From the NCBI GenBank assembly GCA_019651095.1, contig BOXR01000001.1, positions 224,405 through 288,404 on the forward strand: a stretch of 64,000 nt of DNA. The letters are read 5' to 3'. Shown here in pieces: positions 1 through 50,247 of the stretch (positions within the stretch are counted from its first letter, which is position 1; every line of letters begins with the position of its first letter). The notes beneath the pieces were generated by a model. The model was not told the DNA's origin, did no database searches, and saw only the letters and a list, made by a program, of their open reading frames with translations. This DNA comes from Ectothiorhodospiraceae bacterium (GTDB taxonomy: Bacteria; Pseudomonadota; Gammaproteobacteria; GCA-002705445; GCA-002716945). The translations under genes were made by a program, and so were the position numbers.

Positions 1-4104
<4,104 letters not shown>

Positions 4105-4107
4105 AAA

Positions 4108-5076: not shown

Positions 5077-5143
5077 ATATTTATTATATGTTATTTTTAA
5101 GTTTCACTTATTATTTTCGAGCCTATTTCTCAAAACATGTTAT

Positions 5144-10170: not shown

Positions 10171-12042
10171 ATATTTATGACGTAATAGTTGTTGGTGGAG
10201 GGCATGCTGGTTGCGAAGCAGCTCATGCAAGCGCTCGTCTTGGCTCTAAGACACTTTTAATTACGATGAAAATAGATGGGATTGGCCAAATGAGTTGCAA
10301 TCCAGCTATTGGGGGTATTGGAAAATCACACCTTGCGCGTGAGGTTGATGCTCTTGATGGCCTAATGTGCAAAGCTGCGGATGATGCCTCTCTTCAGTCT
10401 AGAGTTCTCAATTCAAGCAAAGGGGCAGCAGTCAGAGCAACTAGGATTCAAACTTGCAGAGATGAGTATAAGAAAGCCATGCAAAAGCATATTTTAAATC
10501 ATGAAAACCTTACTGTCCTTCAATCAACTGTAAAGTCTGTAAAGTTTTCAAAAAACAGAGCTGATGGTGTTGTTATTGAAACGGGAGATTTCATAAAATC
10601 AAAATGCGTAGTGCTCACTGCCGGAACATTTTTAGACGGTGTAATTCATATGGGAGAAAAAACATTTTCTGCCGGGCGGTCAGGTGACAGAGCCTCTGTC
10701 AATTAGAAAAGTACTTTAAAGATTCCGGATTCAATATTGAAAGATTGAAGACAGGAACACCACCGAGAATTAAGACCGAATCTATTAATTTCGACAGACT
10801 TCAAAAACAAGACAGCGACCATCCTCTCCCTATGTTGTCATACCTAAATGATCACTACGGATTTTCTCCAAGTCACATCCAAAAGATACCATGCTATATA
10901 ACTCATACAAATATGCATACACATGAGATCATTGAATCTAGTAAAGATAAGTCACCCTATTCAATGGAAAAATCAAATCAGTTGGGCCAAGATACTGTCC
11001 TTCTATTGAAGATAAGGTTTACAGGTTTTCAGACAAATCTAGCCATCAAGTTTTTCTTGAACCTGAGACTTCTGATAACTTAGAAATATATCCAAATGGT
11101 CTATCAACAAGTTTACCGCTAGAGGTACAAGAAGAGTTCTTGCAAACAATATCTGGCTTGGAACGTTGTGAAATAACACAGCCGGGATATGCTATTGAGT
11201 ATAGTTACTTTGACCCTAGGGGCTTGAAATCAAGCCTTGAAACAAAAAATATTGATAGCCTATTCTTCGCTGGGCAAATAAATGGGACGACCGGCTACGA
11301 AGAAGCTGCTGCTCAGGGAATAATCGCTGGGATCAATGCTGCCAGAAAATCTCAGGGTAAATCTAGTTGGACACCCCAGCGTCATGAGTCATATATCGGT
11401 GTACTAATTGATGATCTTATCACTCAGGGCGTTACAGAACCATATAGGATGTTTACAAGTAGGGCGGAGTATCGACTAAGGCTAAGAGATGACAACGCAG
11501 ACATACGTCTCACCAAACAGGGATTTGAAATTGGTGTAGTTGGCGAGGCGAGATATCAGTCATTCTGCGATAAAGTTGATAGAATCAATTCTGAAAAGAC
11601 TCGTCTTGATAAAATAAAAGTTGAAATCGAATCTGAGGACCATGAATTACTTAAAAGTAAATATGGTCTTCATTTATCTGAAAATAAGTCATATGCCTCT
11701 TTACTTAAAACATCAAAAATACAATATTCTGACTTAATGAATTTATCTAATTTTGGAATGACTACAAATGCATCCGTAGGCCATCTTGTTGCTTCTGATA
11801 TAAGATACGCAGGTTATGTTGCTAAGCAAGAAAAAGAAATTGAGCAATTAAAGGCGAGCTATATGACACTAATACCTGAGAATGTTGATTATGCCGATAT
11901 TAAAGGTTTATCAAATGAGGCGGTCGAGAGACTCAACAATGCGCGACCTGAGAGTATTGGACAGGCATCTCGTATCTCTGGTATCAACTCTTCATCAGTA
12001 GCGCTAATTAAAATACACCTAAAAAAAAATAAAGTCATTTAA
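10167..12042 (+). CDS. mnmG: tRNA uridine 5-carboxymethylaminomethyl modification enzyme MnmG (GidA); two frameshifts (~10695 and ~10955)
   Basis: The pieces read YDVIVVGGGHAGCEAA (FAD fold), ..ERLKTGTPPRI.., and GPRYCPSIEDKVYRFSDKSSHQVFLEPE..PGYAIEY. Together they reconstruct a full-length MnmG. At the first break the text gtcaattagaaaag would be in frame if one T were added to the T run. Confidence 0.92.
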
Positions 12043-14447: not shown

Positions 14448-14798
14448 GTGAGAAGAGTAATTGCCTTTCAAGGCACAATAGCGTTAGTTACAGCGCTCGT
14501 ATTTATGTATATGGGCTACCAAAAAATAGAATCATCTCTATTTGGCGGGGTTATCTCAATACTCAATACTATTCTTCTTGCTAAAAGTGTAGAACAAGCA
14601 GGCGAGGCTGCACTTGAGCAAAATGTTAGTGGAGGCACACTAGTTTTATTTAAGAGTTTGCTGATTAGAATAGCTCTTATTTTAGTTGGTTTCTACATTG
14701 GCATCGTGACTTTGAGCCTAGACGCTCTGCAAATGTTGGTCGCATTCGCAGTCACACAAATAGGGTATGTCTTTAATAAGAATAAGACGATTTATTAG
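14448..14798 (+). CDS. atpI: F0F1 ATP synthase protein I
   Basis: 116-aa hydrophobic protein immediately upstream of atpB; GTG start. Confidence 0.6.
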   Translation: MRRVIAFQGTIALVTALVFMYMGYQKIESSLFGGVISILNTILLAKSVEQAGEAALEQNVSGGTLVLFKSLLIRIALILVGFYIGIVTLSLDALQMLVAFAVTQIGYVFNKNKTIY

Positions 14799-14806
14799 GT
14801 AGTTAG

Positions 14807-15586
<780 letters not shown>

Positions 15587-15608
15587 CGATAATTAAAGAG
15601 GAAAAATA

Positions 15609-15902
15609 ATGGAAACACTATCACCAGACATGATCACTCAAATTTATTCATCTACTAGTCTAGGTGTATCTATAATGTTAGCTGCAGCTGGACTCGGATC
15701 AGCATTAGGTTGGGGTTTGATCTGCATGAAGTATATCGAAGGTATCGCCAGACAACCAGAAATGCTTCCGGCACTTAGAACACAAATGTTTATCACAGCA
15801 GGCCTAATGGAATCATTTCCATTCATAGTGCTTGCCTTTGCAATGTTCTTTGTGTTTGCAAATCCGTTTGTTGGAGCAGCAAAAGCTGCGCTTGGAGCAT
15901 AG
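15609..15902 (+). CDS. atpE: F0F1 ATP synthase subunit c
   Basis: 97 aa hairpin protein with loop motif ARQPE. The ion-binding carboxylate is Glu (GLMESFPF). AGAGGA RBS upstream. Confidence 0.93.
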   Translation: METLSPDMITQIYSSTSLGVSIMLAAAGLGSALGWGLICMKYIEGIARQPEMLPALRTQMFITAGLMESFPFIVLAFAMFFVFANPFVGAAKAALGA

Positions 15903-15916
15903 GGAGCTAAGTCTTA

Positions 15917-16384
15917 ATGAATGTAACTGCAACACTTTTTGGACAAATGATCACATTTATTGTGTTTGTATGGTTTATTAAAGCTTATTTATGGGAGCCT
16001 CTAACACAGGCAATGGAAAGTAGAACTAAGAAAATATCAGATGGCCTGGCAGCTGCTGAACAAGGCCAAAAAAAAATAGAACAAGCGACGATAGAATTCT
16101 CTACGCGTATTGATCAAGCAAAAACACAAGCTTCATCTATCATTACAGACGCTGAATCAAAATCAAAAAATATCGTAGAAGAAGCAAGGGTAGCAGCAAG
16201 GGAAGAGGCCCAAAAAATCGCTAAAACATCATCTCAGCAACTTGAACAAGAGATAAACGCCGCTAGAGAAAAACTTAAATCTGAGGTTGCAGCAATGTCA
16301 TTATTATGTGCTGAGAAGATCATCAGTAAAGAAATTGACAAAAAAATGCACGACAAGATTATCGATGAGGTTGTGAACAAGTGA
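15917..16384 (+). CDS. atpF: F0F1 ATP synthase subunit b
   Basis: 155 aa with a single N-terminal TM and a long charged helix, in the expected operon position. Confidence 0.9.
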   Translation: MNVTATLFGQMITFIVFVWFIKAYLWEPLTQAMESRTKKISDGLAAAEQGQKKIEQATIEFSTRIDQAKTQASSIITDAESKSKNIVEEARVAAREEAQKIAKTSSQQLEQEINAAREKLKSEVAAMSLLCAEKIISKEIDKKMHDKIIDEVVNK

Positions 16385-16920
16385 CCGACAGCATTACATA
16401 TTCTAGACCATATGCAGAGGCAGCGTATAAAATCGCATCAGAGTCAAAATCCATACCGATGTGGAATGACAATCTTATGACCCTATCGGGGATTATAGTA
16501 GATATGGAAGTCAAAGCTATAATAGCAAGTCCCAAGATCGACTCAGACCAAACTCTTAATTTCCTTGCCAGTTTCTTGCCACAAAAGGATGAATCGTTCA
16601 GTAATTTTCTCAGCATAATGATAGCCAACAAGAAAGTTTATTTTCTTGATGAGGTTTACAAACTATTTAACGATATGGTTTTGGAGGATAAGAATACAAC
16701 GATTGCTGAGGTTGAAACAGCTTTTGCCCTAAGTGATACACAAAAAAGTGATATTGTTGACAGTCTTACAAAAAAATATGATAAAAAAATTCAAATCCAT
16801 GAAGTGATAAACGAAAGACTTTTAGCGGGTATCAAAATCAGTGTCAACAATGAGGTAACTGACTACAGTGTAAGAAACAAATTAAATCTAATGAAAGAAC
16901 AAATCATAAATAATAGGTAA
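16381..16920 (+). CDS. atpH: F0F1 ATP synthase subunit delta
   Basis: 179 aa, OSCP-like, between atpF and atpA; GTG start overlapping the atpF stop. Confidence 0.88.
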
Positions 16921-16924
16921 AGTC

Positions 16925-18466
16925 ATGACAATTAATCCAACAGAAATTAGCGATATCATTAAAGACAAGATAAAGAATCTTGATATTAAAACCCAGTCTC
17001 ATAACGAGGGCACGGTTGTATCTCTCACTGACGGCATAGCTCGAATTTATGGAATTACAGATGCTCTACAAGGTGAAATGTTAGAGTTCCCAAATAACAT
17101 ATATGGTTTAGCACTTAATCTCGAGAGAGATTCTGTCGGTGCCGTAATCCTGGGTGATTATAAATCTATCTCAGAAGGAGATACAGTAAAGTGTACTGGT
17201 AACATCTTAGAAGTACCTGTGGGAGATGAGTTATTGGGTAGAGTGGTAAATTCTCTCGGAGAACCAATAGATAATGGAGGGCCCATAACCACAAAACTTA
17301 AATCTCCTATAGAAAAAATTGCACCTGGTGTTATTGAGAGAAAATCTGTGGACCAACCTGTTCAGACAGGCCTGAAGTCCATTGACTCAATGGTCCCAAT
17401 TGGACGTGGACAGCGAGAGCTAATTATTGGCGACAGACAAACTGGTAAAACGGCTGTTGCAATTGATGCGATCATTAACCAGAAAGATACAGGTGTGAAA
17501 TGTATTTATGTTGCTATTGGCCAAAAAGCCTCGTCGATAGCCGCTGTTGTGAGGAAACTTGAAGAGCATGATGCTCTTAAACATACGATTATTGTTGCTG
17601 CATCAGCATCAGATTCTGCAGCCATGCAATATATAGCGCCTTACTCAGGTTGTGCAATGGGTGAATATTTTAGAGATTCTGGAGAGGATGCGTTAATAGT
17701 CTATGATGACTTAACTAAGCAAGCGTGGGCGTATCGTCAAGTATCACTCTTATTGAAACGACCTCCTGGGCGAGAGGCTTATCCTGGAGATGTATTTTAC
17801 TTGCATTCAAGATTGCTAGAGAGATCAGCTAGGATTAATGAGGATGCTGTTGGAGATATAACTGGCGGGAAAGTTAAAGGTAAAACAGGGTCATTAACAG
17901 CACTTCCTATTATCGAAACACAAGCAGGAGATGTATCTGCATTCGTTCCAACAAATGTTATATCTATCACAGACGGCCAAATATTTTTAGAGACAGATTT
18001 ATTTAACGCAGGAATACGACCAGCAATTAATGCAGGATTGTCAGTTTCTCGTGTGGGTGGCGCTGCTCAAACAAAAATTATTAAAAAGCTTGGAGGTGGT
18101 GTCAGACTTGCACTTGCTCAATACCGTGAGTTAGCAGCTTTCTCACAATTTGCGTCTGATCTAGATGAAGCAACACGAAAACAGTTAGAGCGCGGTAAAC
18201 GTGTCACAGAACTTATGAAACAATCGCAGTATTCACCGTTATCTGTTGCTGGTATGGCTATTTCACTTTATGCAGCCAATGAGGGTTATCTTGATGATGT
18301 TGATCTGGAAAAAATTATATCTTATGAGAAATCTCTTCATGAGTTCTCTGCTGAAAAATATCCTGATCTAGTTGAAGAGATTAATACTAACTGTGACTAC
18401 AATGATGATGTAGCAGCCAAGCTTAAAACTCTCATGGATGACTTCAAAGAAAAGGGAGTCTATTAA
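16925..18466 (+). CDS. atpA: F0F1 ATP synthase subunit alpha
   Basis: 513 aa. Walker A GDRQTGKT and [20 protein letters not shown]. Confidence 0.98.
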
Positions 18467-18468
18467 TC

Positions 18469-19332
18469 ATGTCTGGCAGCCAAGAGATCAGAACACAGAT
18501 AGCAAGTATTCAAAATACTCAAAAAATCACAAAAGCTATGGAGATGGTTGCAGCCAGTAAAATGAAAAAAGCACAGGATCAGATGACCAAAGCAAGACCG
18601 TACGCAGATAAAATATTAAATGTTATAAAGCATTTAGCACACGCTCATCCTGAGTATACTTCTGAGTTTTTTGCTCAGAGAGATGTATCAAAGAAGGGTT
18701 ACATCATAATATCCTCAGATAGAGGACTTTGCGGAGGTTTAAATAATAACTTATTTAAACTTGTTGTTGAAAATATTGAAAAGGATAGCAGTTCAAGCAT
18801 AAAGCCTGCCTTCTCCCTGATAGGAGGAAAAGCCTCATCTTTTTTTCAAAGGATGGGAGGAGATGTGATAGCTCAAACGTCACAACTTGGCGACAAACCC
18901 AAAATAGAGCAGGTGCTTGGTTTAATAAAAAATACTATCGACAGTTTTATTAGCAAAGATATAGATGAAGTTTATATTGTCTATAACAAATTCATCAACA
19001 CTGTCAGTCAAGAACCCATAGTGCAAAAAGTACTACCTATACAAACAGAAGATAAAAATGAGGAGTATGATTATTATTGGGACTATTTATATGAACCAGA
19101 TGCTGAAGCAGTGCTCGAGTCACTATTTACAAGATATATTGAGTCTCTAATTTACAGAGGACTTGTTGAAAACTTAGCATGTGAGCAAGCTTCAAGAATG
19201 GTAGCAATGAAAGCAGCTTCAGATAATGCTTCAGATCTAATATCAGAATTACAATTAATTTATAATAAAAATAGACAAGCCGCTATTACACAAGAAATTT
19301 CAGAGATTATCTCTGGTGCAGCAGCGCTTTAA
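18469..19332 (+). CDS. atpG: F0F1 ATP synthase subunit gamma
   Basis: 287 aa. N-terminal IQNTQKITKAMEMVAASKM and C-terminal RQAAITQEISEIISGAAAL. Confidence 0.96.
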   Translation: MSGSQEIRTQIASIQNTQKITKAMEMVAASKMKKAQDQMTKARPYADKILNVIKHLAHAHPEYTSEFFAQRDVSKKGYIIISSDRGLCGGLNNNLFKLVVENIEKDSSSSIKPAFSLIGGKASSFFQRMGGDVIAQTSQLGDKPKIEQVLGLIKNTIDSFISKDIDEVYIVYNKFINTVSQEPIVQKVLPIQTEDKNEEYDYYWDYLYEPDAEAVLESLFTRYIESLIYRGLVENLACEQASRMVAMKAASDNASDLISELQLIYNKNRQAAITQEISEIISGAAAL

Positions 19333-19337
19333 TATAG

Positions 19338-20723
<1,386 letters not shown>

Positions 20724-20724
<1 letters not shown>

Positions 20725-21149
20725 TGGCAGATAAAATAAGACTTGAGATTGTAAGTGCTGAAGAGGAGCTCTTTTCAGAAGATGTTGAAATGGTTTATGC
20801 GCCAGCAGAAATGGGTGAAGTTGGCGTATCACCTAAACATACACCACTAATCACAAAGCTAAAGCCTGGGGATGTTCGAGCTCAAATTAGCAAAGACGAA
20901 ATGAAGACCTTTTACGTTAGTGGTGGTATATTGGAAATACAACCAAACGAGGTGACGATTTTGTCAGATACTGCTATTCGTGAAGATGATTTGGATGAAG
21001 AAAGAGCTCTTGAAGCTGAGCGTCAAGCAAAAGAAGCTATGAAAAATAGTTCTAGTGAGATTGACTCTTCAAAAGCTAAAACAGAATTATTACAAGCAGC
21101 TGCACAATTACGTCTTATTAAAAAGTTGAGAAGTAATACTAAAAAATAA
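20724..21149 (+). CDS. atpC: F0F1 ATP synthase subunit epsilon
   Basis: 141 aa, last gene of the atp operon. Its ATG overlaps the reconstructed atpD stop. Confidence 0.92.
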
Positions 21150-22542: not shown

Positions 22543-24356
22543 TGTGCGGCATTTTTGGAATATCTTCAACTAAACCGATTTCAAACCAACTGATTAAGGG
22601 ATTATCAAAACTTGAGTACAGGGGCTATGATTCAGCAGGCATTTCAGGTCATGATATCAATAGTAAATTAGTCACGATTAAAGCTACTGGTCCGATAAAA
22701 AATCTAAAACATAAACTCTCCAAGTTAAAAGGGATCACAACAGCTGTATCACATACGAGATGGGCAACACATGGACAGCCAACATTAAAAAACACTCATC
22801 CACATTTATCTGAATACATTGGTATTGTCCATAATGGGATCATAGAAAATTACTTAGACCTTAAGTCATATTTAAAGAAGAAAGGATACGTTTTTAGAAG
22901 TGATACAGATTCAGAGGTTATATGTCATTTGATGAACTACTATTTTAATAAGTCTGCTGATATGCAATCTTCAATTATTTCTACAGCGAATTCACTGGAA
23001 GGAAGTTATGCAATAGCAGCAATCAATTCGCACACACCTCATACAATTTATACATCATGCAAAGGAAGCCCAATAATTTTAGGTAAAGGTGTAGATGCAA
23101 ATTACATTTCGTCCGATATAACTCCAATAATTGATCACACTAAACACTTTATACCAATGGATGATAGTGAATTTGCAGAAATCAATTCGACAAGTATTAA
23201 AATATTTAATAAAAATAAAAGAACAATAAGAAAGCCAACTAAAGTATCAAAGATCAACAAAAATCAAGCATCGCTAATGGGCCATAGACATTTTATGCAC
23301 AAAGAGATCTATGAGCAGAGAACAATTATACAAGATATGACAAGTCGCTTTGTCGGGAAGAATAAAATCTTGCCGAATATATTTGGACACAATACTGATA
23401 AATTTCTTGAAAATATTGAACATATCCATTTTGTAGCTTGTGGTACAAGTTATCATGCATCTTTAGTCGCTAAAGATTGGATAGAGCAATTCACTAAAAT
23501 TACATGTACTGCAGAAGTCGCCAGTGAATATAAATATAAAAAGATAAATGTATTACCTAAGACACTATTTGTAAGTATTTCTCAGTCTGGGGAAACTGCT
23601 GATACTATATCATCTCTTAAGAAAGCTCTAAAACTTAGCTATACAAACACTCTAGCTATATGTAATGTAGCAGAAAGTACGCTTACAAGATTATCCGGTA
23701 TGAATTTTCTTATGAATGCAGGACCAGAAATAAGCGTTGCCTCAACCAAGGCTTTTACATCACAACTATTTACTCTTTTATTGCTAACAGTCATTTTGTC
23801 AAGAAAGTACGGCAAAACAGAAAAAAAGATGGTTCAAGATATAAGACAAATCGATAAAAAAATAGATGAACTGTACAAAATGGAAGATGAGATTAAGAAA
23901 ATATCCACTAAATTCAAAAACAAAGAGCATACTCTTTTTTTGGGTAAAGGGACATCTTATCCCATAGCTCTAGAGGCTGCTCTAAAACTGAAAGAAATAT
24001 CATATATTCATGCATCTGCATATCATTCTGGTGAACTTAAGCATGGCCCCTTAGCTTTGGTAGATAAAAAAATGCCCGTTGTCTGTTTTTTACCTGATAA
24101 TCATTTAGCAAGGTTAGTCTTATCCAACCTTGCTGAAGTTGAGGCAAGGCAAGGACAAACATTTATTTTCACTAACAAAAAAATTGCTAGAAACAAGAAA
24201 AAAGTGGAAGTGATAAAGATGCCAGATTGCCCTGATCTCATCGTTCCCATACTTTATATAATCCCAGCGCAACTTTTAAGCTATCACGTGGCTTTGAAAA
24301 AAAATACTAATGTAGATAAGCCAAGGAACCTTGCGAAATCAGTTACAGTAGAGTAA
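22542..24356 (+). CDS. glmS: glutamine--fructose-6-phosphate aminotransferase
   Basis: 604 aa. N-terminal MCGI Ntn amidotransferase nucleophile, two SIS domains, C-terminal KPRNLAKSVTVE. Confidence 0.97.
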   Translation: MCGIFGISSTKPISNQLIKGLSKLEYRGYDSAGISGHDINSKLVTIKATGPIKNLKHKLSKLKGITTAVSHTRWATHGQPTLKNTHPHLSEYIGIVHNGIIENYLDLKSYLKKKGYVFRSDTDSEVICHLMNYYFNKSADMQSSIISTANSLEGSYAIAAINSHTPHTIYTSCKGSPIILGKGVDANYISSDITPIIDHTKHFIPMDDSEFAEINSTSIKIFNKNKRTIRKPTKVSKINKNQASLMGHRHFMHKEIYEQRTIIQDMTSRFVGKNKILPNIFGHNTDKFLENIEHIHFVACGTSYHASLVAKDWIEQFTKITCTAEVASEYKYKKINVLPKTLFVSISQSGETADTISSLKKALKLSYTNTLAICNVAESTLTRLSGMNFLMNAGPEISVASTKAFTSQLFTLLLLTVILSRKYGKTEKKMVQDIRQIDKKIDELYKMEDEIKKISTKFKNKEHTLFLGKGTSYPIALEAALKLKEISYIHASAYHSGELKHGPLALVDKKMPVVCFLPDNHLARLVLSNLAEVEARQGQTFIFTNKKIARNKKKVEVIKMPDCPDLIVPILYIIPAQLLSYHVALKKNTNVDKPRNLAKSVTVE

Positions 24357-25053
24357 TCATTAAAGACTTATTTTGAGGCAAGGAAGTTTCTGTAATTCTT
24401 CCTTCTTCATTCTTGACTAGGATAAGAGTTTTTACCATTTTGAAAGATATCGATTTAAAAACTTGATCATTCTTCAAATGTAATGCACATCCACCATCTA
24501 TTGCAAAACAGTCACCAATCTCTCCATTTGAGATGAAATTAGATAAAGAGGGTTTTCTCTCAGGCTCTTCATCATAATGTGGACAACAATTACCTTTTGT
24601 ATAACCTAAACATTCTAAAACATTTAGATTGTCTGCCCATGAATCTGTAATGCCTTTTTCAAACCAACATATCGCGCCAGCACTAACTCCGCTCATGATG
24701 GTTCCTGATTCGTATGCATTCTTTAAAATTATATCCAAACCCCATTCACGCCAAACAGCTAACATACTTTTAGTATTTCCACCGCCAACAAAGATGACAT
24801 CTTGCATCTGAATAAATTTTTCCAAGTTTGGAGTTCTCTTAAAAAAATCTAAATGAGTTGGATTACAGTCCAACTTAGTCATTGTTGAATAATAACTAAC
24901 TTTATAAGATTCACTATCTCCTGTTGCTGTCGGAATAAAGCAAATGTTTGGAGTATCTTTGTCTGATTGATCTAGTATATATTTTTCAATAATACCAACC
25001 CCAGGATTTCTCCCAAATCCACCACCACCAATTGCTATGATTTGTTTATCCAT
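24343..25053 (-). CDS. S51 family peptidase (peptidase E / cyanophycinase-like)
   Basis: 236 aa. IAIGGGGF.., FVGGGNT and the nucleophile block MSGVSAGAICW are typical of S51 dipeptidases. 3' end overlaps glmS convergently by 14 nt. Confidence 0.7.
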   Translation of the reverse strand: MDKQIIAIGGGGFGRNPGVGIIEKYILDQSDKDTPNICFIPTATGDSESYKVSYYSTMTKLDCNPTHLDFFKRTPNLEKFIQMQDVIFVGGGNTKSMLAVWREWGLDIILKNAYESGTIMSGVSAGAICWFEKGITDSWADNLNVLECLGYTKGNCCPHYDEEPERKPSLSNFISNGEIGDCFAIDGGCALHLKNDQVFKSISFKMVKTLILVKNEEGRITETSLPQNKSLMITLL

Positions 25054-25149
25054 ATTTTTAAGTTAGACAGTCCTCCCTGATCTTTAGCATTATACAACTA
25101 TTAGAATAACTTATATAATACCTAAAGTAGTAAACGCAAGGAGAACGCA

Positions 25150-25596
25150 ATGCTTAACGTATATTTATCAGGTGAAATTCATACTGATTGGAGACAAGAA
25201 ATAATTGATGAGTGCCAAAAAGAAGGGTTAGATATTAACTTTTCATCGCCAGTTACTAATCATGAATTATCAGACAATTGTGGAGTTGATATTCTGGGTG
25301 CAGAGGAAAATAATTTCTGGAAAGACAACAAAGGTGCAAACATAAATTCAATTCGCACAAAAAAATCAATCGAAGATAGCGATGTTGTTATTGTCAAGTT
25401 TGGAGAAAAATACAAACAGTGGAATGCTGCATTCGATGCAGGCTATGCCTCAGCATTGAATAAATCTATAGTTGTGATTCATGGAGATGAACATCAACAC
25501 CCACTTAAAGAGGTTGATGCTGCGGCGTGCGCGGTAACAAAAGATCAAAGTCAGGCAGTAAAGATACTTAAGTATATCGTTCAAGGCTCCCTGTGA
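25150..25596 (+). CDS. YtoQ family protein (nucleoside 2-deoxyribosyltransferase-like fold)
   Basis: 148 aa. The N-terminal VYLSGEIHTDWRQEI and overall length match my recollection of the YtoQ family. AAGGAG RBS upstream. Confidence 0.6.
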   Translation: MLNVYLSGEIHTDWRQEIIDECQKEGLDINFSSPVTNHELSDNCGVDILGAEENNFWKDNKGANINSIRTKKSIEDSDVVIVKFGEKYKQWNAAFDAGYASALNKSIVVIHGDEHQHPLKEVDAAACAVTKDQSQAVKILKYIVQGSL

Positions 25597-25605
25597 TTGC
25601 TAAGC

Positions 25606-25827
25606 ATGACTGTTAATAAAAATAATAAACTTACTGAGGCACAAATCGGAGAGATTATATTTATGGCTCTTTCTGATGATGTAAGTTTTGACAGCATCAA
25701 TGAACGTTTCGGTATAGATAGTGATCAAATTAAAAGAATAATGAAACAAAATATTTCATTTGGCTCTTATAAAAAATGGAGAGAGCGTGTGAAAAAATTC
25801 TCAAAAAGAAGGATGCACTATAAGTAA
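25606..25827 (+). CDS. DUF2805 / TIGR03643 family small protein
   Basis: 73 aa from the ATG. LTEAQIGEIIFMALSDDVSFDSINERFGIDSDQIKRIMKQNISFGSYKKWRERVKKFSKR matches the TIGR03643 pattern (..FEAIE.QFGL.E..VI.LMR..LK..SF..WRKRV). Confidence 0.65.
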   Translation: MTVNKNNKLTEAQIGEIIFMALSDDVSFDSINERFGIDSDQIKRIMKQNISFGSYKKWRERVKKFSKRRMHYK

Positions 25828-26100
25828 ATGAGTGAAGAAAAAATTATTATAAAGCAGTCGACTCCTATTTATGGAACACTTGGTATCATATTTGGGTTTG
25901 TAGGAATTTTTATTTTATCACCACTCTTTAGCCCTCTGGCGTTGATACTCGGTTCTTTGGCATGTCTCCAAAAGGAATTTACAGCTGGCATCCTGAGTAT
26001 CGTATTCGCAATTTTAGGAATCATCACCTCGCCCATTCTGATGGCACTACTTAACATGCCAAATATCATAATTTATCAAAATCAGGGTGTTTTTCTATGA
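25828..26100 (+). CDS. small hypothetical membrane protein (2-3 TM)
   Basis: 90 aa. Its ATG abuts the previous stop (TAAATG). Strongly hydrophobic, Gly/Ile-rich helices. No family recognised. Confidence 0.5.
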   Translation: MSEEKIIIKQSTPIYGTLGIIFGFVGIFILSPLFSPLALILGSLACLQKEFTAGILSIVFAILGIITSPILMALLNMPNIIIYQNQGVFL

Positions 26101-26138: not shown

Positions 26139-26166
26139 TTGATAAATATCCGATTTTATATAGAAT
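26139..26166 (+). promoter_or_regulatory. candidate sigma70 promoter of the proteorhodopsin gene
   Basis: TTGATA (26139-26144), 16-nt spacer, TAGAAT (26161-26166), about 45 nt upstream of the ATG. AAGGAG RBS 8 nt before the start. Confidence 0.4.
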
Positions 26167-26210
26167 AAAAAGGTATTAATTTAAATTAATTTAATAAAAA
26201 GGAGTTATTT

Positions 26211-26972
26211 ATGAGGAACGTTTTATCATATGCTCTCTCACTACTATTCGTAACAGCTCTACCATCCGTAGCATTCGCTGGGGATCTTCAAGCTAACGAT
26301 TTTGTAGGGGTGACATTCTGGATAATATCGATTTCGATGGTTGCAGCAACTCTCTTCTTCTTCTCTGAAAGATCAAGAGTATCAGCTAAATGGCAAACAT
26401 CGTTATCAGTCATATCACTAGTAACGTTAATCGCAGCTGTACACTATTTCTATATGAGAGAAGTATGGGTTGAAACAGGCGAATCTCCAACTGTATTCAG
26501 ATACATCGATTGGATTTTAACTGTACCGTTACAAATGATCGAATTCTACTTAATACTAGCAGCTGTAACAACTGTTAGTGCAGGTGTATTCAATAGACTG
26601 CTTGTAGGTACACTAGTCATGTTGATTGGTGGTTACTTAGGTGAAGCTGGAGTAATCAATGCGATGCTCGGATTCATCATCGGGATGGCAGGCTGGATAT
26701 ACATCCTGTATGAAATTTTTGCTGGTGAAGCAGGACAAAAAAGTACGTCTTGTGGAAGCGTGGGTGCTCAAATGGCATTCAATGCATGTCGTATGATCGT
26801 ATTAGTCGGTTGGGCGATTTATCCACTCGGATATCTATTCGGATACCTAATGGGTGGTGTAGATGCAGCAAGCTTGAACTTGATTTATAACCTTGCAGAT
26901 TTTGTAAACAAAATCGCATTCGGTGTATTTATCTGGGCAGCTGCAATAGCAGATTCAGCAGAAACTGCATAA
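26211..26972 (+). CDS. proteorhodopsin, proton-pumping (DTE motif), blue-absorbing type (Gln at spectral tuning position)
   Basis: 253 aa with signal peptide ..ALPSVAFAGD and 7 TM. RYIDWILTVPLQMIEFYL carries the Asp acceptor, the Thr, Gln at the position-105 equivalent and the Glu donor. His in VHYFYMR. Retinal Schiff-base Lys in NLADFVNKIAFG. Near-colinear with the classical SAR86 proteorhodopsin as I recall it. Confidence 0.95.
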   Translation: MRNVLSYALSLLFVTALPSVAFAGDLQANDFVGVTFWIISISMVAATLFFFSERSRVSAKWQTSLSVISLVTLIAAVHYFYMREVWVETGESPTVFRYIDWILTVPLQMIEFYLILAAVTTVSAGVFNRLLVGTLVMLIGGYLGEAGVINAMLGFIIGMAGWIYILYEIFAGEAGQKSTSCGSVGAQMAFNACRMIVLVGWAIYPLGYLFGYLMGGVDAASLNLIYNLADFVNKIAFGVFIWAAAIADSAETA

Positions 26973-26990
26973 ATAAACTTAAAAATATGT

Positions 26991-27014
26991 ACAAGGAGCG
27001 CTTGCGCTCCTTGT
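26991..27014 (+). terminator. perfect 10-bp stem / 4-nt loop hairpin between proteorhodopsin and crtI (partial terminator or mRNA-stabilising element)
   Basis: ACAAGGAGCG-cttg-CGCTCCTTGT, 19 nt after the PR stop. The downstream tract ATTATGTCT is only weakly U-rich. Confidence 0.45.
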
Positions 27015-27025
27015 ATTATGTCTAA

Positions 27026-28495
27026 ATGAAAAAAACTATTGTTATTGGTTCAGGCTTTGGTGGCCTAGCAATTGCTTGCAGACTAAAAGCAATGGGACAT
27101 GATGTCACTGTTCTAGAAAAACTAGACAATCTCGGTGGCAGAGCCAGAACACTCTATCATAATGGTTTTGAATATGATGCTGGACCTACGGTAATTACAG
27201 CTCCATATCTATTAAATGAAATATTTGATCTTTTCGGTAAAGATTCGAGAGATTACTTTAATCTATTAAGAGTTAAGCCTTACTATAGATTCGTATTTAG
27301 TGATAAATCTTTTTTTGACTATGGATCATCCCTCAAAGGGATGCTTAATCAAATCAAGAAAAACTATTCAAAAGAGGATGCTATTGGATATATTAGACTA
27401 TTGAAACATTCCAAACGTATTTTTGATACGGCCTATTTAAAACTCGCAGACTATCCTTTTGAGAACATTCAAAGCATGTTTCCTTATGTACCCGAGTTGA
27501 TGAGGATCAAGTTTTACAAATCAGTACATAGTTCTGTAAAGTCATACCTTCATAATGAAAATCTTGTAAAAGCACTCAGCATGCATCCACTTTTAGTAGG
27601 TGGTAATCCATATACAACTACATCTATTTACCTTCTCATTCAATATTTAGAATGGAAATGGGGCGTCTATTATGGAGATGGCGGGACCCGTTCTATTGTG
27701 AGTGGTTTTAAGAAGTTGTTTGATGAAGAGGGAATAGAGTATAAGACTAACTGCGAAGTTTTAAATATTAATCATGACAATAAACGTATTAAAACAGTAG
27801 AGACTTCTGAGGGTACTTTGGATGCTGATTTAGTAGTGAGTAATGCAGACCCCTCACATTTCTATGAGAATATACTTAAAATTGCACCTAAGAAAATATT
27901 CAATAAAAAATCTATCTTGAAGCATTCAATGGGACTGTTCGTTTTTTATTTCTCCACAAAAAAGATTTACAGCGATGTTCAGCACCACACTATAATCTTT
28001 AACAAACGACATAAAGAACTGCTTGATGATATTTTTGATAATAAAATCTATATCAACGATCCTAGTCTGTATCTTCATAGACCCTCTGCAACTGATAAGA
28101 AAAACATTCAAAATAGCTGCGATTCTTTTTATGTTCTTGCGCCAGTCGCAAATAATCAAAGTAATATTAACTGGAATGAAAAAGGAGAAGAGTTCTGTCA
28201 GCATGTTATAAGCATACTGAGCGAGACTGTACTACCTGATCTTAAATCTAATCTTGTTGACCAGTTCTTTGTTACACCTGACTATTTTGAGAATGAATTG
28301 AATTCATTTAATGGAAGTGGTTTTGGCATACAGCCTATTTTCAGACAATCTGCTTATTTTAGATACTCAAATAAATCTCAAGAACTCAACAATTTATATT
28401 TTGTTGGTGCAGGCAGTCACCCAGGAGCAGGTGTACCAGGTGTATTATCCTCTGCAAAAGTTACTGAAAAGCTTATACTTAAATATAATGCCTAG
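27026..28495 (+). CDS. crtI: phytoene desaturase
   Basis: 489 aa. N-terminal FAD fold VIGSGFGGLA..LEKLDNLGGRA and C-terminal FVGAGSHPGAGVPGVLSSA, typical of CrtI. Confidence 0.92.
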   Translation: MKKTIVIGSGFGGLAIACRLKAMGHDVTVLEKLDNLGGRARTLYHNGFEYDAGPTVITAPYLLNEIFDLFGKDSRDYFNLLRVKPYYRFVFSDKSFFDYGSSLKGMLNQIKKNYSKEDAIGYIRLLKHSKRIFDTAYLKLADYPFENIQSMFPYVPELMRIKFYKSVHSSVKSYLHNENLVKALSMHPLLVGGNPYTTTSIYLLIQYLEWKWGVYYGDGGTRSIVSGFKKLFDEEGIEYKTNCEVLNINHDNKRIKTVETSEGTLDADLVVSNADPSHFYENILKIAPKKIFNKKSILKHSMGLFVFYFSTKKIYSDVQHHTIIFNKRHKELLDDIFDNKIYINDPSLYLHRPSATDKKNIQNSCDSFYVLAPVANNQSNINWNEKGEEFCQHVISILSETVLPDLKSNLVDQFFVTPDYFENELNSFNGSGFGIQPIFRQSAYFRYSNKSQELNNLYFVGAGSHPGAGVPGVLSSAKVTEKLILKYNA

Positions 28496-29316
28496 AACTT
28501 TTGAACATGTACTTAAATCAAATAGCAAAACTTTCTATATTGCCTCTAGGCTCCTGCCTAAATACGTGAGGAGGGATGTTTTTAAAGTTTACTCTTTTTG
28601 TAGACTTGTATGATGATAACGTGGACCTTGATAGGAAGGATGACACAAATGACTTAGAAGAATATATTCTCAAACTGGGGATAGATGGTAGTGTCGTAAG
28701 GGAATTGAAAAATGGTATTAATTCCGATATTAATCGTTCCAGTATTAAAGATCTTAACGACTTGCTGAAGTATTCATATAAAGTAGCTGGCTGTGTCGGG
28801 CTAATGATGTGTGATGTATTATCTATCAAAAGTACTCTAGCAAGATATTACGCAATAGACTTAGGAATTGCTATGCAAATAACAAATATATGCAGGGATG
28901 TCCTAATTGACTATAGAGGTGGCAGAGTATACTTACCAAGCACTATGTTAGGTGATAATGAAATTTCATCTATGACAGACGCAGAAATACTATCCGTTGT
29001 AACGAAGCTAATTAAACTCGCAGATGATTATTACAATAGCGCCTTAAATGGTATTAAGCTTATACCAATCAGATCGCGCTTTTCTATACTTTACGCATTG
29101 AGGCTCTATCAGGCTATCGGTCACAAAATTTTAAGAGAACAACAAAAGTATTTCAAAGAAAAAATAAATACTACATTGAGTGAAAAGATGATTATATTTT
29201 TTAAGTCATTTTTTGAGTTTATGACTATGTCTTTAAGACAATCTAATAGAAAGCAACATAACCAAACTCTTCATAAATCACTACAGGGACTCCCGTACGT
29301 CAATGAAACAGTATGA
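28488..29316 (+). CDS. crtB: phytoene synthase; one frameshift near 28610
   Basis: The ATG overlaps the crtI stop by 8 nt. The N-terminal piece MPRTFEHVLKSNSKTFYIASRLLPKYVRRDVFKVYSFCRLV joins to DDNVD.. in the 28576-29316 frame, restoring the YxFCRxxDDxxD motif. The second Asp-rich region NICRDVLIDY follows. Confidence 0.88.
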
Positions 29317-30423
29317 TGTGGTAATAATAGGCGCAGGTTGCTCGGGTCTTAGTCTAGCCTACAGATTGATTGGGTCACTCTCAAAGTATGCGTACTAGAT
29401 AATATGAAAAGAGATAACAGGCATAGGAAGACCTGGTCATACTGGAATACATATCAGCACCCATTTGAACACTTACAAGCGTATTCTAACAGCTCTCTTA
29501 TAGTAAAAAACTCCTCACAAACAACACTAGATTGTAATACATATAACTACTCTACAATTGACTCTAATGATTTTGATGATTTTGTTTTTTCTGAATTAGA
29601 ACAAAGTGAAAACATAGATGTTATCTTTGATACAAATATTGAAGATATAGGACTAGAAGGTACTGAATATATTTTCAGAGTCTCAGAGAATCTTGATTGT
29701 AGCGCGCGTTATGTATTCGATAGCAGACCAAATAAATCACCCTTTAGTATGAAGCAAATATTTAAAGGAATTTTCGTTGAATTCCATGAACCTCTCGAAA
29801 ACTTTAAACCTCATCTAATGGATTTTTCAGATAAAGATCAGTTTCATTTTTTTTACAGTCTTCCATTGGGAAAAGCTAAGTATTTATTTGAATCTACCTA
29901 TTACACATCCCTAAATATGGATAGTGAATTAATGACTAATGAGGTTCATGATTACATTAAAGAAAAATATGGAGATGGTTATTCAGTAGTTCGAGAAGAG
30001 TATGGTGAAATACCCCTTACAACGAATATAAAACTAAACGAGAATAAATCCAACTATATCAAAATTGGTATTCCTGCAGGTTCTACGAGAGCCTCTACAG
30101 GATACACTTTTTTAAACATTCAAAAACAAGCAGACGAATACATTAGAATGTTAAATGGTAAAAAATTCATTGAATATCCCAAGACCTTTAAGAACAAAAT
30201 TCTTAGAAAAATGGATAACTTACTACTGATGATAATAAGAGATCATCCATCAGAAAGTAAAAAAATCCTTTTTGAAATGTTTAATCGTAATAAGGCAAAG
30301 AGAATTATTAGATTTCTCTCTGACACACCAACGCTGGTAGATATAATATCTATCATATGGAACATGCCTAAAGTAATATTCATCAAATATGCAATTAAGT
30401 CATTCACAGCATCAAAGATATAG
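29303..30423 (+). CDS. crtY: lycopene beta-cyclase; one frameshift near 29380
   Basis: The ATG overlaps the crtB stop by 14 nt. MKQYDVVIIGAGCSGLSLAYRL (FAD/NAD fold) joins after a shift to KVCVLDNMKRDNRHRKTWSYW.., continuing into ORF 29404-30423. Confidence 0.85.
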
Positions 30424-31288
30424 TAAATATCAATTAATTCTTCTCACTAACCTGAGTGTTCTATCTTGGGTAATTATCATTCTTGCTCCAAGTCTAGTTT
30501 CAATTAATACTCAACTGATATTACTTGTTACAACTGTAACTATTATAGGTATACCGCATGGATACTTTGACTTTCTTGTTGCTAAAAAACTTTACTCCAA
30601 CTCTGATTATTGGTTGAGCAAGTTTATCTTGGTCTATACAGCAACATCTTTGTTGTACTTATATGTATGGGTTATTTCACCGATTTTTGCACTTATAGTA
30701 TTCTTATTGATGGCTCAGTATCATTTTGCAGTTGAAGAATCAGGTAATCTAGATTCTAGGAATATTATTCTGATGTTTATATTGGGGGGAGTGCCAATTT
30801 TTACACCTATAATTTTCCAGACTAATGATGTTTTTAGTCTATTTGCTATTCTACTGAACCATGAGTTCTTTGATATTGTATTTTCTGCTCTTCATCAAAC
30901 TATATATATCCTTACAGTACTAGCTGTAATATTTTTGTACGCACGAAGATTATCATTATTGTATGTTCTACTATTAATAAACTTTATATATCTCCCACCC
31001 CTATTATCATTTATTTTATATTTCTGTTTTCATCACTCATTAAGACACTACTTAGATGCATTGATAGATTCTAATTTATTTGAAAAAAAGATTTCATTAA
31101 CTAAATATGTTTTTTTCTTTTTATTCCTAACAATTGCTTTCACTTTTATCACACTTTTTATGTTATCGTCATTGGCACAAATATCACTTGAGAGCGCAAT
31201 AATAAAATATATTTTTATTACCTTGGCATGCCTTACACTTCCTCACCTGCTTTTAAATTCAATATATGAAAATAGATACAGTAAATAG
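30389..31288 (+). CDS. blh: beta-carotene 15,15'-dioxygenase (Brp/Blh family), retinal-forming
   Basis: 299-aa polytopic membrane protein with the four conserved His blocks of Blh: GIPHGYFD, AQYHFAVEE, FCFHHSLRHY, LTLPHLLL. Overlaps the crtY 3' end. Confidence 0.85.
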   Translation: MQLSHSQHQRYSKYQLILLTNLSVLSWVIIILAPSLVSINTQLILLVTTVTIIGIPHGYFDFLVAKKLYSNSDYWLSKFILVYTATSLLYLYVWVISPIFALIVFLLMAQYHFAVEESGNLDSRNIILMFILGGVPIFTPIIFQTNDVFSLFAILLNHEFFDIVFSALHQTIYILTVLAVIFLYARRLSLLYVLLLINFIYLPPLLSFILYFCFHHSLRHYLDALIDSNLFEKKISLTKYVFFFLFLTIAFTFITLFMLSSLAQISLESAIIKYIFITLACLTLPHLLLNSIYENRYSK

Positions 31289-31433
31289 AACAAGAATTCT
31301 AGTAACACATAATTTATGTTGCTTTTATCTATTATTAGAAGATACTCAATAAAGGATAAAGCAATTGATAATTTCAAATGAAATATTTATCTTATTTACT
31401 GATACAAATCGATACTGGGGATATTTAAACTAA

Positions 31434-33374
31434 ATGAGCTCATCTGATATTTATAAATCTAAAGATTGGATTACCGAAAAAGCCTTTATAAAAAAAGATG
31501 ATTATAAAGCTATGTACGAACAATCTATCTCTAAACCTGACGAGTTTTGGTTTGAACAAGGACAAAGATTAGATTGGTTTACTCCCTATACAAAGGTTAG
31601 AGACTACTCATATGAAAAAGATGATCTATATATTAAGTGGTATGAAGATGGTGAACTCAACGCATCATATAATTGCCTCGACCGACATATAGAAAAAAAT
31701 GCTGACAAGATTGCAGTTATCTGGGAGGGAGATGATCCCTCTAATTCGAGAAAAATTACATATCAAGAACTACTCACAGAAGTATGTAAATTTTCTAATG
31801 GGTTAAAATCTTTAGGTGTAAAAAAAGGCGACAGAGTTACCATTTACATGCCTATGATTCCTGAAGCTGCCATTGCTATGTTGTCATGTGCCAGAATTGG
31901 CGCTGTCCATTCTGTTGTATTCGGAGGATTTTCTCCCGAGGCTCTCGCAGGTCGTTTAGAAGATTGTGATTCTAAATACATAATAACTGCGGATGAGGGC
32001 GTCAGAGGCGGTAAGACAATACCCTTAAAGGAAAATGTTGATAAGGCTATTTCCAAGATAGAGGATTTTAAGAAATGTGTTGTCGTGAAAAGAACTGGTA
32101 ATGCAATTAATTGGGACAGCAGTATTGATCACTGGTACGACGATTTAGTGTCTTCTGCTTCAGCCATTTGCGAACCAGAAAAAATGTCCTCTGAGGACCC
32201 GATATTTATTCTGTACACTTCTGGCTCAACAGGGAAGCCAAAAGGTGTATTACATACCACGGGCGGATATCTTGTATATGCATCTATTACACATCAATAT
32301 ATTTTTGATTGTCATGACGACGATATTTATTGGTGCACTGCAGATGTGGGATGGGTAACCGGACATTCTTATATAATTTATGGACCATTGTGTAATGGGT
32401 CTACAACAATTATGTTTGAAGGAGTTCCAAACTATCCAACACCCAGTAGGTTTTGGGAGATTGTTGATAAGTATGAGGTGAATATTCTATATACCGCACC
32501 TACAGTCATAAGAGCACTTATGTCTGAAGGTAAAGGGCATGTTGATAAGACATCTAGAAAATCTCTCCGAATCTTGGGAAGTGTAGGAGAACCAATTAAT
32601 CCTGAGGCGTGGCGTTGGTATTATGACGTGGTTGGAAATTCTGACTGTCCAATTGTGGATACCTGGTGGCAAACAGAGACAGGAGGCATTATGATAACGC
32701 CACTTGTCGGAGCTATTGATATGAAACCGGGTTCAGCAACACTACCATTTTTTGGAATCGAACCAGTTTTAGTTGATGATAATAACAACGAAATTAAAGG
32801 CCCTGGAGAGGGCAGTTTATGTATAAATATGTCATGGCCTGGTCAAATGCGAACAGTTTACGGTGATCACAAAAGGTTTATAGATACATATTTTACTCAA
32901 TATCCTGGTCGTTATTTTTCAGGAGATGGATGCAGAAGGGATGAAGATGGTTATTATTGGATAACCGGAAGAGTAGATGATGTCATAAATGTCTCAGGAC
33001 ATCGCTTGGGTACTGCAGAGGTAGAGTCCGCGCTTGTGCTTCATAAAGACGTATCAGAGGCAGCAGTAGTTGGATATCCCCATAAGATTAAAGGTCAAGG
33101 ACTGTATGCTTTTGTTGCATTGAATAAAAATGTCAAACCAAGTACTGGTCTTGAAAATGAGTTACTACAATGGGTTAAACAAGAAATTGGATCTATAGCT
33201 AAGCCTGATTTCTTACAATTCACTGAGGGGCTGCCAAAAACTCGATCAGGTAAAATTATGAGAAGAATTTTGAGAAAGATTTCTATAAATGATTATAATA
33301 ATCTTGGAGATACCTCTACTCTTGCTGACTCCACCGTAGTAGAAGGTCTCATAAAAAATAGGAAGAATATTTAG
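31434..33374 (+). CDS. acs: acetyl-CoA synthetase (AMP-forming)
   Basis: 646 aa. AMP-binding [19 protein letters not shown], and C-terminal [17 protein letters not shown]. Confidence 0.97.
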
Positions 33375-43475: not shown

Positions 43476-44831
43476 TTGGCACAACATACTATGGAAGATT
43501 TGGTAGCTCTCTGCAAAAGAAGAGGCTTTATTTTTCAATCAAATGAGATTTATGGAGGCATTCAAGGATTATATGACTATGGCCCATTAGGCGTAGAATT
43601 AAAAAATAATCTTAAAAATGCTTGGTGGAAATCGACAGTATATAACAGAGATGATGTAGAAGGTCTCGACACTTCTATTCTTACTCATCCTGATGTCCTT
43701 AAATATTCAGGACACCAAGATACCTTCACTGATCCTCTAGTTGACTGCAAAAGCTGTGGTCTGAGGTTTAGAGAAGATCAAATACCTGAGCAGTGTATAG
43801 GTGAGGAATTAACTGATCCAAGAGAATTTAATCTGATGTTTGAGACCAGCGTTGGCCCTATCGTAGATGATTCATCTGTTGCATATTTACGACCAGAGAC
43901 CGCACAACAAATTTACATTAACTTTAAAAACGTCATTGATAGTACATCTAGATCATTACCGTTTGGTATTGCTCAAATTGGAAAGTCATTTAGAAATGAA
44001 ATCACACCAAGGAACTTTATCTTTAGAGTTCGCGAGTTTGAACAAATGGAGCTTGAGTTTTTTGTCACTCCTGGTGAAGATGATAAATGGCATAAAATAT
44101 GGGTTGATGAGAGAGTCAAATGGTGGATTGATCAGGGATACCAAAAGAAAAACTTGAACTTCTCACTGTAACGGGCGACGACCTAGCACATTATTCTAAG
44201 GCAACTGTTGATATTATGTATCAATTTCCACATGGCTCAGAAGAGCTTGAGGGTATTGCAAATAGAACAGATTTTGACCTTGGCTCTCATACTAAAAATC
44301 AGAAAGAACTTAACATAAATGCAAATGTCATGGAAAATAAAGACTCTAATACACGTTTAGCCTATACAGAATGAAAATAATGAATGGATAGTTCCATACG
44401 TAATTGAGCCTTCAGCAGGCGTAGATAGGGGAGTATTAGCAATTATAAATGAGGCTTTTACTATCGAGACTCTTCCAGACAATAAAAAAAGAACTGTGTT
44501 GAAATTAAAAAAACATCTCTCGCCAATTAAAGCTGCGGTTATACCTTTAAAAAGAAACAATGAGGATCTTGTGAAGCTTGCTCATGACATTAAGAAATCA
44601 TTGCAAAAGTATCAAATCGGGAGAGTTGTAGTTGAGAACACAGGAAACATTGGTAAAAGTTATAGAAAACATGATGAGATTGGGACTCCATTATGTATGA
44701 CGATAGACTTTGATTCTTTGGAAAAAAATACATTGACAATTAGAGATCGTGATTCAATGGATCAGAAAACTATAAAAATAGATGATGTAGAACATTTTTT
44801 TATTAATTATTTTTCAGATGAATCAGAGTAA
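43476..44831 (+). CDS. glyQS: glycine--tRNA ligase, homodimeric alpha2 (GlyQS) type; at least two frameshifts (~44135 and ~44375)
   Basis: N-terminus [65 protein letters not shown] (class II motif 2). Shifted pieces read [55 protein letters not shown] and the anticodon-binding [11 protein letters not shown]... Total length is about 452 codons. The start is either TTG 43476 or ATG 43491. Confidence 0.9.
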
Positions 44832-50174: not shown

Positions 50175-50247
50175 GCCGGAATAGCTCAGTTGGTAGAGCA
50201 CCGCATTCGTAACGCGTAGGTCAGTGGTTCGATTCCACTTTCCGGCA
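50175..50247 (+). tRNA. tRNA-Thr (anticodon CGU)
   Basis: Hand-folded cloverleaf. Acceptor GCCGGAA/TTCCGGC, D arm GCTC-AGTTGGTA-GAGC, anticodon loop TTCGTAA, T arm AGTGG-TTCGATT-CCACT, discriminator A. Close to E. coli thrW as I recall it. The anticodon stem has two mismatched end pairs. Confidence 0.85.

Follow-up and report, generated by a model that had tools for sequence, protein, structure and literature searches.

A proteorhodopsin-crtIBY-blh gene cluster in a marine gammaproteobacterial genome, with frameshifts in crtB and crtY read as consensus errors

A proteorhodopsin (PR) gene followed by four genes of retinal biosynthesis was identified within a 64,000-nt stretch of DNA, referred to here as the window. 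All coordinates are positions in the window, in which this block occupies 26139-31288. The five genes lie on the + strand in the order opsin, crtI, crtB, crtY and blh, and the features of the block are the following.

26139-26166, + strand: promoter-like site, TTGATA-16 nt-TAGAAT (10 of 12 matches in a consensus scan; putative function)
26199-26204, + strand: Shine-Dalgarno sequence AAGGAG, 6 nt before the opsin ATG (read directly)
26211-26972, + strand: opsin (proteorhodopsin), 253 aa (PF01036, structure alignments)
26990-27015, + strand: stem-loop between the opsin stop and the crtI ATG (folding, comparison with relatives)
27026-28495, + strand: crtI, phytoene desaturase, 489 aa, intact (TIGR02734, PF01593, PF13450)
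28488-29316, + strand: crtB, phytoene synthase, frame broken, 275 aa after repair (SQS_PSY)
29303-30423, + strand: crtY, lycopene cyclase, frame broken, 373 aa after repair (PF05834, Lycopene_cycl)
30389-31288, + strand: blh, beta-carotene 15,15'-dioxygenase of the Brp/Blh family, 299 aa, intact (TIGR03753, PF15461)

An earlier note, made from the letters of this DNA, had proposed the same five genes, and all of these assignments are borne out by profile searches with family matches far above chance. The start/stop overlaps that it gave, 8 nt for crtI/crtB, 14 nt for crtB/crtY and 35 nt for crtY/blh, can be read directly from the gene coordinates. We read the block as a canonical 'PR + crtIBY + blh' cluster of a marine gammaproteobacterium that is abundant and uncultured and has a small genome, working by the mechanism set out below and carrying two frameshifts that are consensus errors, and we assign this reading a probability of about 0.88. 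The comparison took in 80 loci: 22 from gammaproteobacterial species that have PR-crtIBY-blh, and 58 from alphaproteobacteria, mostly SAR11. The order PR-crtI-crtB-crtY-blh is common to the 22 species-level gammaproteobacterial genomes. In the alphaproteobacterial loci, crtIBY are present, blh was detected in about one third, and there is no adjacent opsin.

The opsin matches PF01036 (Bac_rhodopsin) with E=1.3e-45 and 156.1 bits (cut-off 24.6), and the match spans positions 3-222 of the 224 in the profile. Its top 12 matches among solved structures are proteorhodopsins or flotillin-associated paralogues, the best being the blue PR HOT75 (4KLY/4KNF, E ~1e-86, ~60% identity). Residues D97, T101, Q105, E108, K231, H75 and D227 are aligned with those of the solved PRs, and the alignment is gap-free around the functional residues. 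The motif RYIDWILTVPLQMIEF aligns with RYIDWLLTVPLLICEF of green proteorhodopsin (GPR), placing the acceptor Asp97, Thr101 and the donor Glu108. Likewise, the segment NLADFVNK aligns without gaps to 4KLY, 4KNF and 8CQC, and its Lys corresponds to the Schiff-base Lys in helix G, K231 of GPR. The Gln at the tuning position matches Q105 of the blue proteorhodopsin HOT75 (4KLY) and L105 of GPR, where green forms carry Leu or Met. The proton-pump triad, the helix-G Schiff-base Lys and the tuning Gln named in the earlier note are thus confirmed by alignment to solved blue and green PRs.

Compared with the blue PRs HOT75 (4KLY, 4KNF) and Med12 (4JQ6), the opsin belongs to the same fold family (E 1e-86 to 7e-81) and shares the aligned D97/T101/E108, K231, H75 and Gln105, but it is only ~60% identical to them. 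The green PR of the SAR86 bacterial artificial chromosome (BAC) EBAC31A08 (2L6X, 7B03, 8CQC) is ~59% identical with the same pump residues, but has Leu105 in place of Gln105. Among the related loci, the RYIDWILTVPLQMIEF motif is kept in 29 of 32, and the other three end before that segment of the opsin. Position 105 toggles between Gln and Leu from species to species among the related genomes, a colour switch that is already known. The first 23 residues (26211-26279), MRNVLSYALSLLFVTALPSVAFA followed by G with the boundary AFA/G, resemble a signal peptide. As judged from its sequence, the protein is a typical blue proteorhodopsin of the Asp-Thr-Glu (DTE) proton-pump type; Gln105 predicts absorption near 490 nm, and the pumping is expected to be outward. 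An identical protein is on record in UniProt/GenBank as ALS56124.1, 'Proteorhodopsin', from the uncultured bacterium EIL5A08 (a Red Sea clone), and our search found no paper on this clone. The identical protein also occurs in 1740 blocks of the assembly collection.

CrtI and Blh are encoded by intact genes. CrtI scores 489.9 bits against TIGR02734 crtI_fam (cut-off 238.1), is also matched by PF01593 and PF13450, carries the N-terminal FAD-binding GxGxxG motif as IGSGFGGLA at residues 6-14, and is deposited as GIR42446.1. Blh reaches 142.5 bits against TIGR03753 blh_monoox (cut-off 95.25) and 129.3 bits against PF15461 (cut-off 28, E=3e-37). Its His57, His112, His216 and His220, which recur in 98-100% of 52 homologues, are presumably the proposed iron ligands.

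Both fragments of crtB match SQS_PSY (PF00494), and the repaired protein scores 159.4 bits (cut-off 26). It is ~30 aa shorter than the profile, in which positions ~33-84 are unmatched. The Asp-rich substrate-binding motifs are present, as DDNVD, which is restored on removing the extra base described below, and DVLID (RDVLIDYRGGRVYLP). A short CrtB of ~275 aa is common to the window clade and SAR11. For crtY, both fragments match Lycopene_cycl (PF05834), and the repaired protein scores 152.1 bits (cut-off 23.4) over profile positions 1-373 of 380, with the N-terminal dinucleotide-binding motif VIIGAGCSG (GxGxxG).

No prenyl-synthase motif was found between 26139 and 31288, and no idi gene was found either, as the open reading frames (ORFs) of the block all belong to other families and the scanned ORFs of the window have no match to an isopentenyl diphosphate isomerase family. 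The sole short-chain prenyl-diphosphate synthase with the first and second Asp-rich motifs (FARM/SARM) in the window lies far outside the block.

51926-52747, + strand: prenyl synthase similar to IspA and farnesyl diphosphate (FPP) synthase, candidate supplier of the C15/C20 precursor

Its start lies 25.7 kb downstream of that of the opsin. It scores 226.6 bits against the NCBIfam FPPsyn model (cut-off 275) versus 166 bits against CrtE (cut-off 460). Among solved structures it best matches the Geobacillus FPP synthase 5AYP, and the two share a Tyr at position -5 of the first Asp-rich motif. No IspA or CrtE homologue was found in any of the 80 loci at a distance of up to 6 kb from crtI, so the absence of crtE is a trait of the lineage and not a peculiarity of the window. 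The earlier note was right that the block lacks crtE and idi. It had listed the missing crtE as an unusual detail, which does not hold for a lineage-wide layout whose crtIBY, blh arrangement with a distant crtE was published in 2005; its description of the module as self-contained was too strong, since geranylgeranyl diphosphate (GGPP) has to come from outside the block.

The closest described system is found on the Mediterranean BAC MED13K09, in which crtIBY and blh are linked to a blue, fast-cycling, proton-pumping PR (Sabehi et al. 2005, PLoS Biol 3:e273; PMC1175822). Its host is a deep-branching gammaproteobacterium, a prenyl synthase annotated as 'crtE' lies ~25 kb downstream with none in the operon, and its Blh converts beta-carotene to retinal (PMC1175822). 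The window shares with it the blue PR followed by crtI, crtB, crtY and blh in an operon without crtE, and the IspA-like synthase lies at a comparable distance downstream of the PR. MED13K09 additionally has ribosomal protein genes and a reverse dsr operon, whereas the search of the 64-kb window for dsr genes found none. The cluster is already known, its crtE-less 'crtIBY, blh' layout dating from 2005, and what clusters of this type do is established. The PR photosystems HF10_19P19 and HF10_25F10 of Martinez and co-workers (PNAS, 2007) reportedly gave E. coli light-driven proton pumping and photophosphorylation. They resemble the block in having contiguous PR, carotenoid and retinal genes, but they include crtE and idi and are self-sufficient in E. 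coli, whereas the block lacks both and needs external GGPP. The complete set sufficient in E. coli (PR, crtE, crtI, crtB, crtY, idi and blh) is thus not found here, crtE and idi being absent. The crtI-crtB-crtY-blh clusters of SAR11 (Pelagibacter; L033-L090) have the same four enzymes in the same order; their CrtI shares 53-55% identity, and they too lack crtE homologues within 6 kb, but the SAR11 opsin is not adjacent to the crt genes.

The sites expected to govern expression were compared with 12 relatives, comprising 11 contigs of the same population (95-99% identity) and the more distant L026 (79% overall identity). Ten of the same-population contigs were found via the exact opsin protein, and L011 and L026 via CrtI. 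The putative -35 hexamer TTGATA, with which the block begins at 26139, and the hexamer TAGAAT are unchanged in all 12, the adjoining downstream sequence varies, and the AAGGAG before the opsin is invariant among the relatives. No purine run comparable to this AAGGAG was read before the crtI ATG. At Rfam gathering thresholds, the entire window returned only a tRNA at 50175, with no 16S rRNA and no riboswitch or known RNA family near the cluster. No terminator was found 3' of blh, where the fold of 31286-31436 is not unusual (z = -1.7).

The stem-loop between the opsin and crtI has the sequence TACAAGGAGCG-CTTG-CGCTCCTTGTA. Positions 26990-27000 pair with 27005-27015 in a perfect stem of 11 bp with 6 GC pairs, with a folding free energy (dG) of -20 kcal/mol and z = -6.6, and none of 200 shuffled sequences was equally stable. 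All 22 related gammaproteobacterial species have a stem-loop with dG of -18 to -24 in the interval from the opsin stop to crtI. The 5' arm takes 17 distinct sequences among 20 of the related loci, and compensatory changes occur at three stem pairs in the near clade. The hairpin is followed in the window clade by TTATGTCT, a weak, degenerate T-tract that is interrupted and has 5 T in 8. The 3' end of the stem lies 10 nt before the crtI ATG, so there is no room for a crtI promoter downstream of the stem. We propose the stem-loop as a candidate terminator or attenuator; partial termination, or an opsin mRNA stabilised at its 3' end together with weak read-through, would be the most economical explanation. 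No paper describing a PR-crtI terminator was found in our search. The perfect hairpin of the earlier note is real, though 1 bp longer than the 10 bp it gave, and it is lineage-wide rather than an unusual detail. Its suggestion that the hairpin lowers the enzymes relative to the opsin gains support from the conservation in the 22 species and the compensatory changes, and stays at the level of a proposal.

It is also possible, if somewhat unlikely, that the hairpin is a full terminator, which would leave the opsin monocistronic and place crtIBY-blh under a promoter in the opsin 3' end, or that it merely protects the opsin mRNA and attenuates nothing. The stem-loops of L027-L032 are canonical, textbook terminators with runs of 6-7 T, and PR is monocistronic in many bacteria. 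Against this, no promoter fits in the 10 nt between the stem and the crtI ATG in the window clade, the T-tract of this clade is degenerate, and no strong promoter-like site was found on the + strand within the final 300 nt of the opsin gene.

The window covers the neighbourhood of the replication origin, with gyrB-recF-dnaN-dnaA on one strand and rpmH-rnpA-yidD-yidC-mnmE-mnmG-rsmG-parA-parB-atpIBEFHAGDC-glmU-glmS on the other. This array places the F1Fo ATP synthase genes upstream of the PR block.

14448-21149, + strand: atpIBEFHAGDC operon (gene calls in relatives)

The gene atpC ends at 21149, and the opsin starts 5.06 kb downstream of the operon. Six genes lie between them, namely glmU, glmS, an S51 peptidase gene on the opposite strand and three small genes; the order after glmS is S51 peptidase, YtoQ, a TIGR03643/DUF2805 protein, a 90-aa membrane protein, the PR block and acs. 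The distance of about 5 kb reported in the earlier note is correct, but the significance attached to it was overstated. The proximity is explained by insertion of the block behind glmS, within the conserved oriC-proximal synteny dnaA ... gidAB-parAB-atpIBEFHAGDC-glmUS, and neither glmS nor atpC lies within 6 kb in L027-L032. That this placement was selected so as to keep the proton pump and the ATP synthase under common regulation or close together appears very unlikely to us. Although the cluster is found near glmS, and hence near the atp operon, in two clades and inverted in one of them (L019, L023, L025), the atp-glmUS genes are part of the conserved array dnaA | rpmH-rnpA-yidC-mnmE-mnmG-rsmG-parAB-atp-glmUS, six genes intervene, the spot downstream of glmS is strain-variable, the proximity is lost in L027-L032, and the SAR11 crt genes have no adjacent PR. 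No evidence was seen for a functional coupling of PR and ATP synthase by position.

The small conserved genes upstream of the opsin promoter (25150-26100) encode YtoQ (TIGR03646/PF11071), the TIGR03643/DUF2805 protein and the 90-aa protein, which has two predicted membrane helices and no family match. In the clade L018-L025 these three genes travel with glmS and not with the PR block. In the same clade, as in L019 (3845-11175), L023 and L025, PR-crtIBY-blh has the opposite orientation to these neighbours (DUF2805, YtoQ, the 90-aa protein and glmS), and all of the block appears to move together. Strains differ at the site immediately 3' of glmS (24356-25150), where the S51 peptidase gene is intact, split or shortened. 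L004 has an insertion of ~0.3 kb and L008 a rearrangement of 0.5 kb at this spot, and the distance from glmS to ytoQ is 3.5 kb in L011 versus 0.8 kb. We speculate that the region next to glmS may be an integration hot spot.

The earlier note reported one frameshift each in crtB and crtY, and both were located inside its intervals 28600-28620 and 29370-29395. In crtB, one extra base is present at 28607/28608, where the window reads CTTGTAT (28605-28611) and the relatives CTT-TAT or CTG-TAT. The extra base is absent from 12 of 12 relatives and falls on a T/G polymorphism of the population; it looks like the alleles T and G written consecutively. Once this base is removed, CrtB is identical to the protein on 12 other contigs. 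In crtY, one C is missing after 29377, the window having TCA-CTCTC and the relatives TCACCTCTC or TCATCTCTC, and the frame is intact at this site in all 12. Gene calls in ten relatives gave CrtB of 275 aa in every case and CrtY of 373 aa in eight, and L007 and L010 have crtY breaks of their own at other sites.

The same class of damage was found in housekeeping genes of the window. In atpD (19347-20727), three-frame translation and alignment show two private 1-nt deletions, after 20392 and 20550; mnmG (10167-12042) is split by two more, at 10700 and 10956. The region 3250-5250, where recF (362 aa) and dnaN (368 aa) of the relatives are expected, lacks ~245 bases and has ~15% mismatches versus L097/L100, with flanks at ~1-8% mismatches that are almost gap-free; no coding-strand ORF of at least 60 aa remains there. 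The neighbouring dnaA is without its stop, giving 453 aa versus 432. Three of the four indels in atpD, crtB and crtY fall on columns that are polymorphic among nine references, such columns making up only 5% overall, and the fourth column shows C/T when L005 is counted in. According to the paper on the CM15mP genomes, wtdbg2 was used to assemble the HiFi (PacBio) reads, and the only polishing in its methods is that of the contigs from Oxford Nanopore (ONT) reads.

Both frameshifts are almost certainly consensus errors from a mixed-strain read pile-up and not biology or a dead pathway, because they are private to the window, like the atpD and mnmG indels and the recF-dnaN damage. They are hence part of a window-wide pattern of private single-base indels, and not the unusual detail of the cluster that they had been taken for. 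A genuine loss would mean that crtB and crtY were lost with the opsin intact, the retinal or beta-carotene coming from neighbours, or that phototrophy is being lost. We consider this highly improbable. The indels do stand in the deposited assembly, rhodopsin-bearing bacteria without known retinal genes are reported (PMC7734400), and sporadic breaks in crtY, crtI or blh occur at other sites in L007, L010, L005 and L009, which are long-read contigs of the same population. Yet atpD and mnmG are doubly broken and recF-dnaN is obliterated in the same sequence, which clearly marks the errors as technical; CrtB is 100% identical to the intact copies but for the single base; the indels sit on population polymorphisms; and the breaks in the other contigs are also scattered over the housekeeping genes glmU, glmS, atpC and dnaA. 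Genuine pseudogenes were rejected as unlikely on the ground that atpD, mnmG, recF and dnaN are damaged likewise. Programmed frameshifting by the ribosome as a brake on enzyme synthesis (+1 in crtB, -1 in crtY) is effectively refuted, for the crtB site CUU GUA UGA only superficially resembles the prfB +1 site in ending with an in-frame UGA, the orthologues in 12 of 12 relatives read both sites in one frame, the crtY site has no X XXY YYZ heptamer, the tRNA-Val at GUA-U has no option for re-pairing, and atpD and mnmG carry the same indel class.

The mechanism consistent with these observations would run as follows. A sigma-70-like promoter and a strong Shine-Dalgarno sequence would drive the opsin, which by homology would act as a DTE-motif outward proton pump absorbing near 490 nm owing to Gln105. 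The conserved stem-loop would serve as a leaky intrinsic terminator or as a stabiliser of the mRNA 3' end, leaving much less message for the four overlapping enzyme genes without Shine-Dalgarno sequences. Following the established pathway, CrtB would convert GGPP to phytoene, CrtI phytoene to lycopene, CrtY lycopene to beta-carotene, and Blh would cleave beta-carotene to two all-trans-retinal. The GGPP would be supplied from outside the block.

Several points weigh against this reading. The repaired CrtB reaches 135-152 bits against the NCBIfam CrtB equivalogs (NF042419 / NF045921), whose cut-offs are 480-500, and the repaired CrtY is likewise below its equivalogs, with 84 versus 209.5 bits for TIGR01790 and 53.5 versus 215.2 bits for TIGR01789. 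The exact activities of both enzymes are thus predicted from their Pfam families, their conserved motifs and the operon in which they lie. The window yielded no GGPP synthase, its sole prenyl synthase being FPP-synthase-like. On the + strand the stem is followed only by the interrupted T-tract (5 T in 8), and the terminator scan listed the stem-loop site on the - strand only. The call of an artefact in crtB and crtY is drawn from assembled sequence and not from reads, and a genuinely mutated strain is formally possible.

A further conjecture, to which we give a small chance, is that this lineage, and possibly SAR11, has no dedicated CrtE, that a single IspA-type synthase would give GGPP, and that a leaky PR-crtI terminator would set a high opsin and low enzyme ratio. 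If true, the IspA-only supply and the leaky terminator would together constitute a minimal four-enzyme design of the retinal pathway in genome-reduced marine bacteria. The biology of the block adds little to what became known in 2003-2007, namely PR + crtIBY-blh clusters, the Q/L105 colour switch and the making of retinal by way of Blh. One modest new point is the opsin-crtI stem-loop across 22 species with its compensatory changes, which offers a handle on the balance of opsin and enzymes. The useful outcome is that the apparent loss of the pathway is almost certainly an assembly artefact.

The truncated products in the window are exactly the proteins GIR42447.1, GIR42448.1, GIR42437.1 and GIR42426.1 of the metagenome-assembled genome (MAG) CM15mP53, 'Ectothiorhodospiraceae bacterium'; GIR42447.1 is the CrtB fragment, GIR42448.1 the 339-aa CrtY fragment and GIR42437.1 the 372-aa atpD fragment. 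In the annotation of this MAG, atpD, mnmG, crtB and crtY are truncated, and the opsin (GIR42445.1), Blh (GIR42449.1) and the CrtB fragment are each named 'hypothetical protein'. A metabolic reconstruction from the CM15mP53 record would wrongly score the organism as without the retinal pathway, which calls for caution. At least three more genes of the window are split, as judged from ORF and family patterns only: those for a class-II aminoacyl-tRNA synthetase (43476-44831), a short-chain dehydrogenase/reductase (SDR; 52747-53575) and a molybdopterin oxidoreductase (54852-56830).

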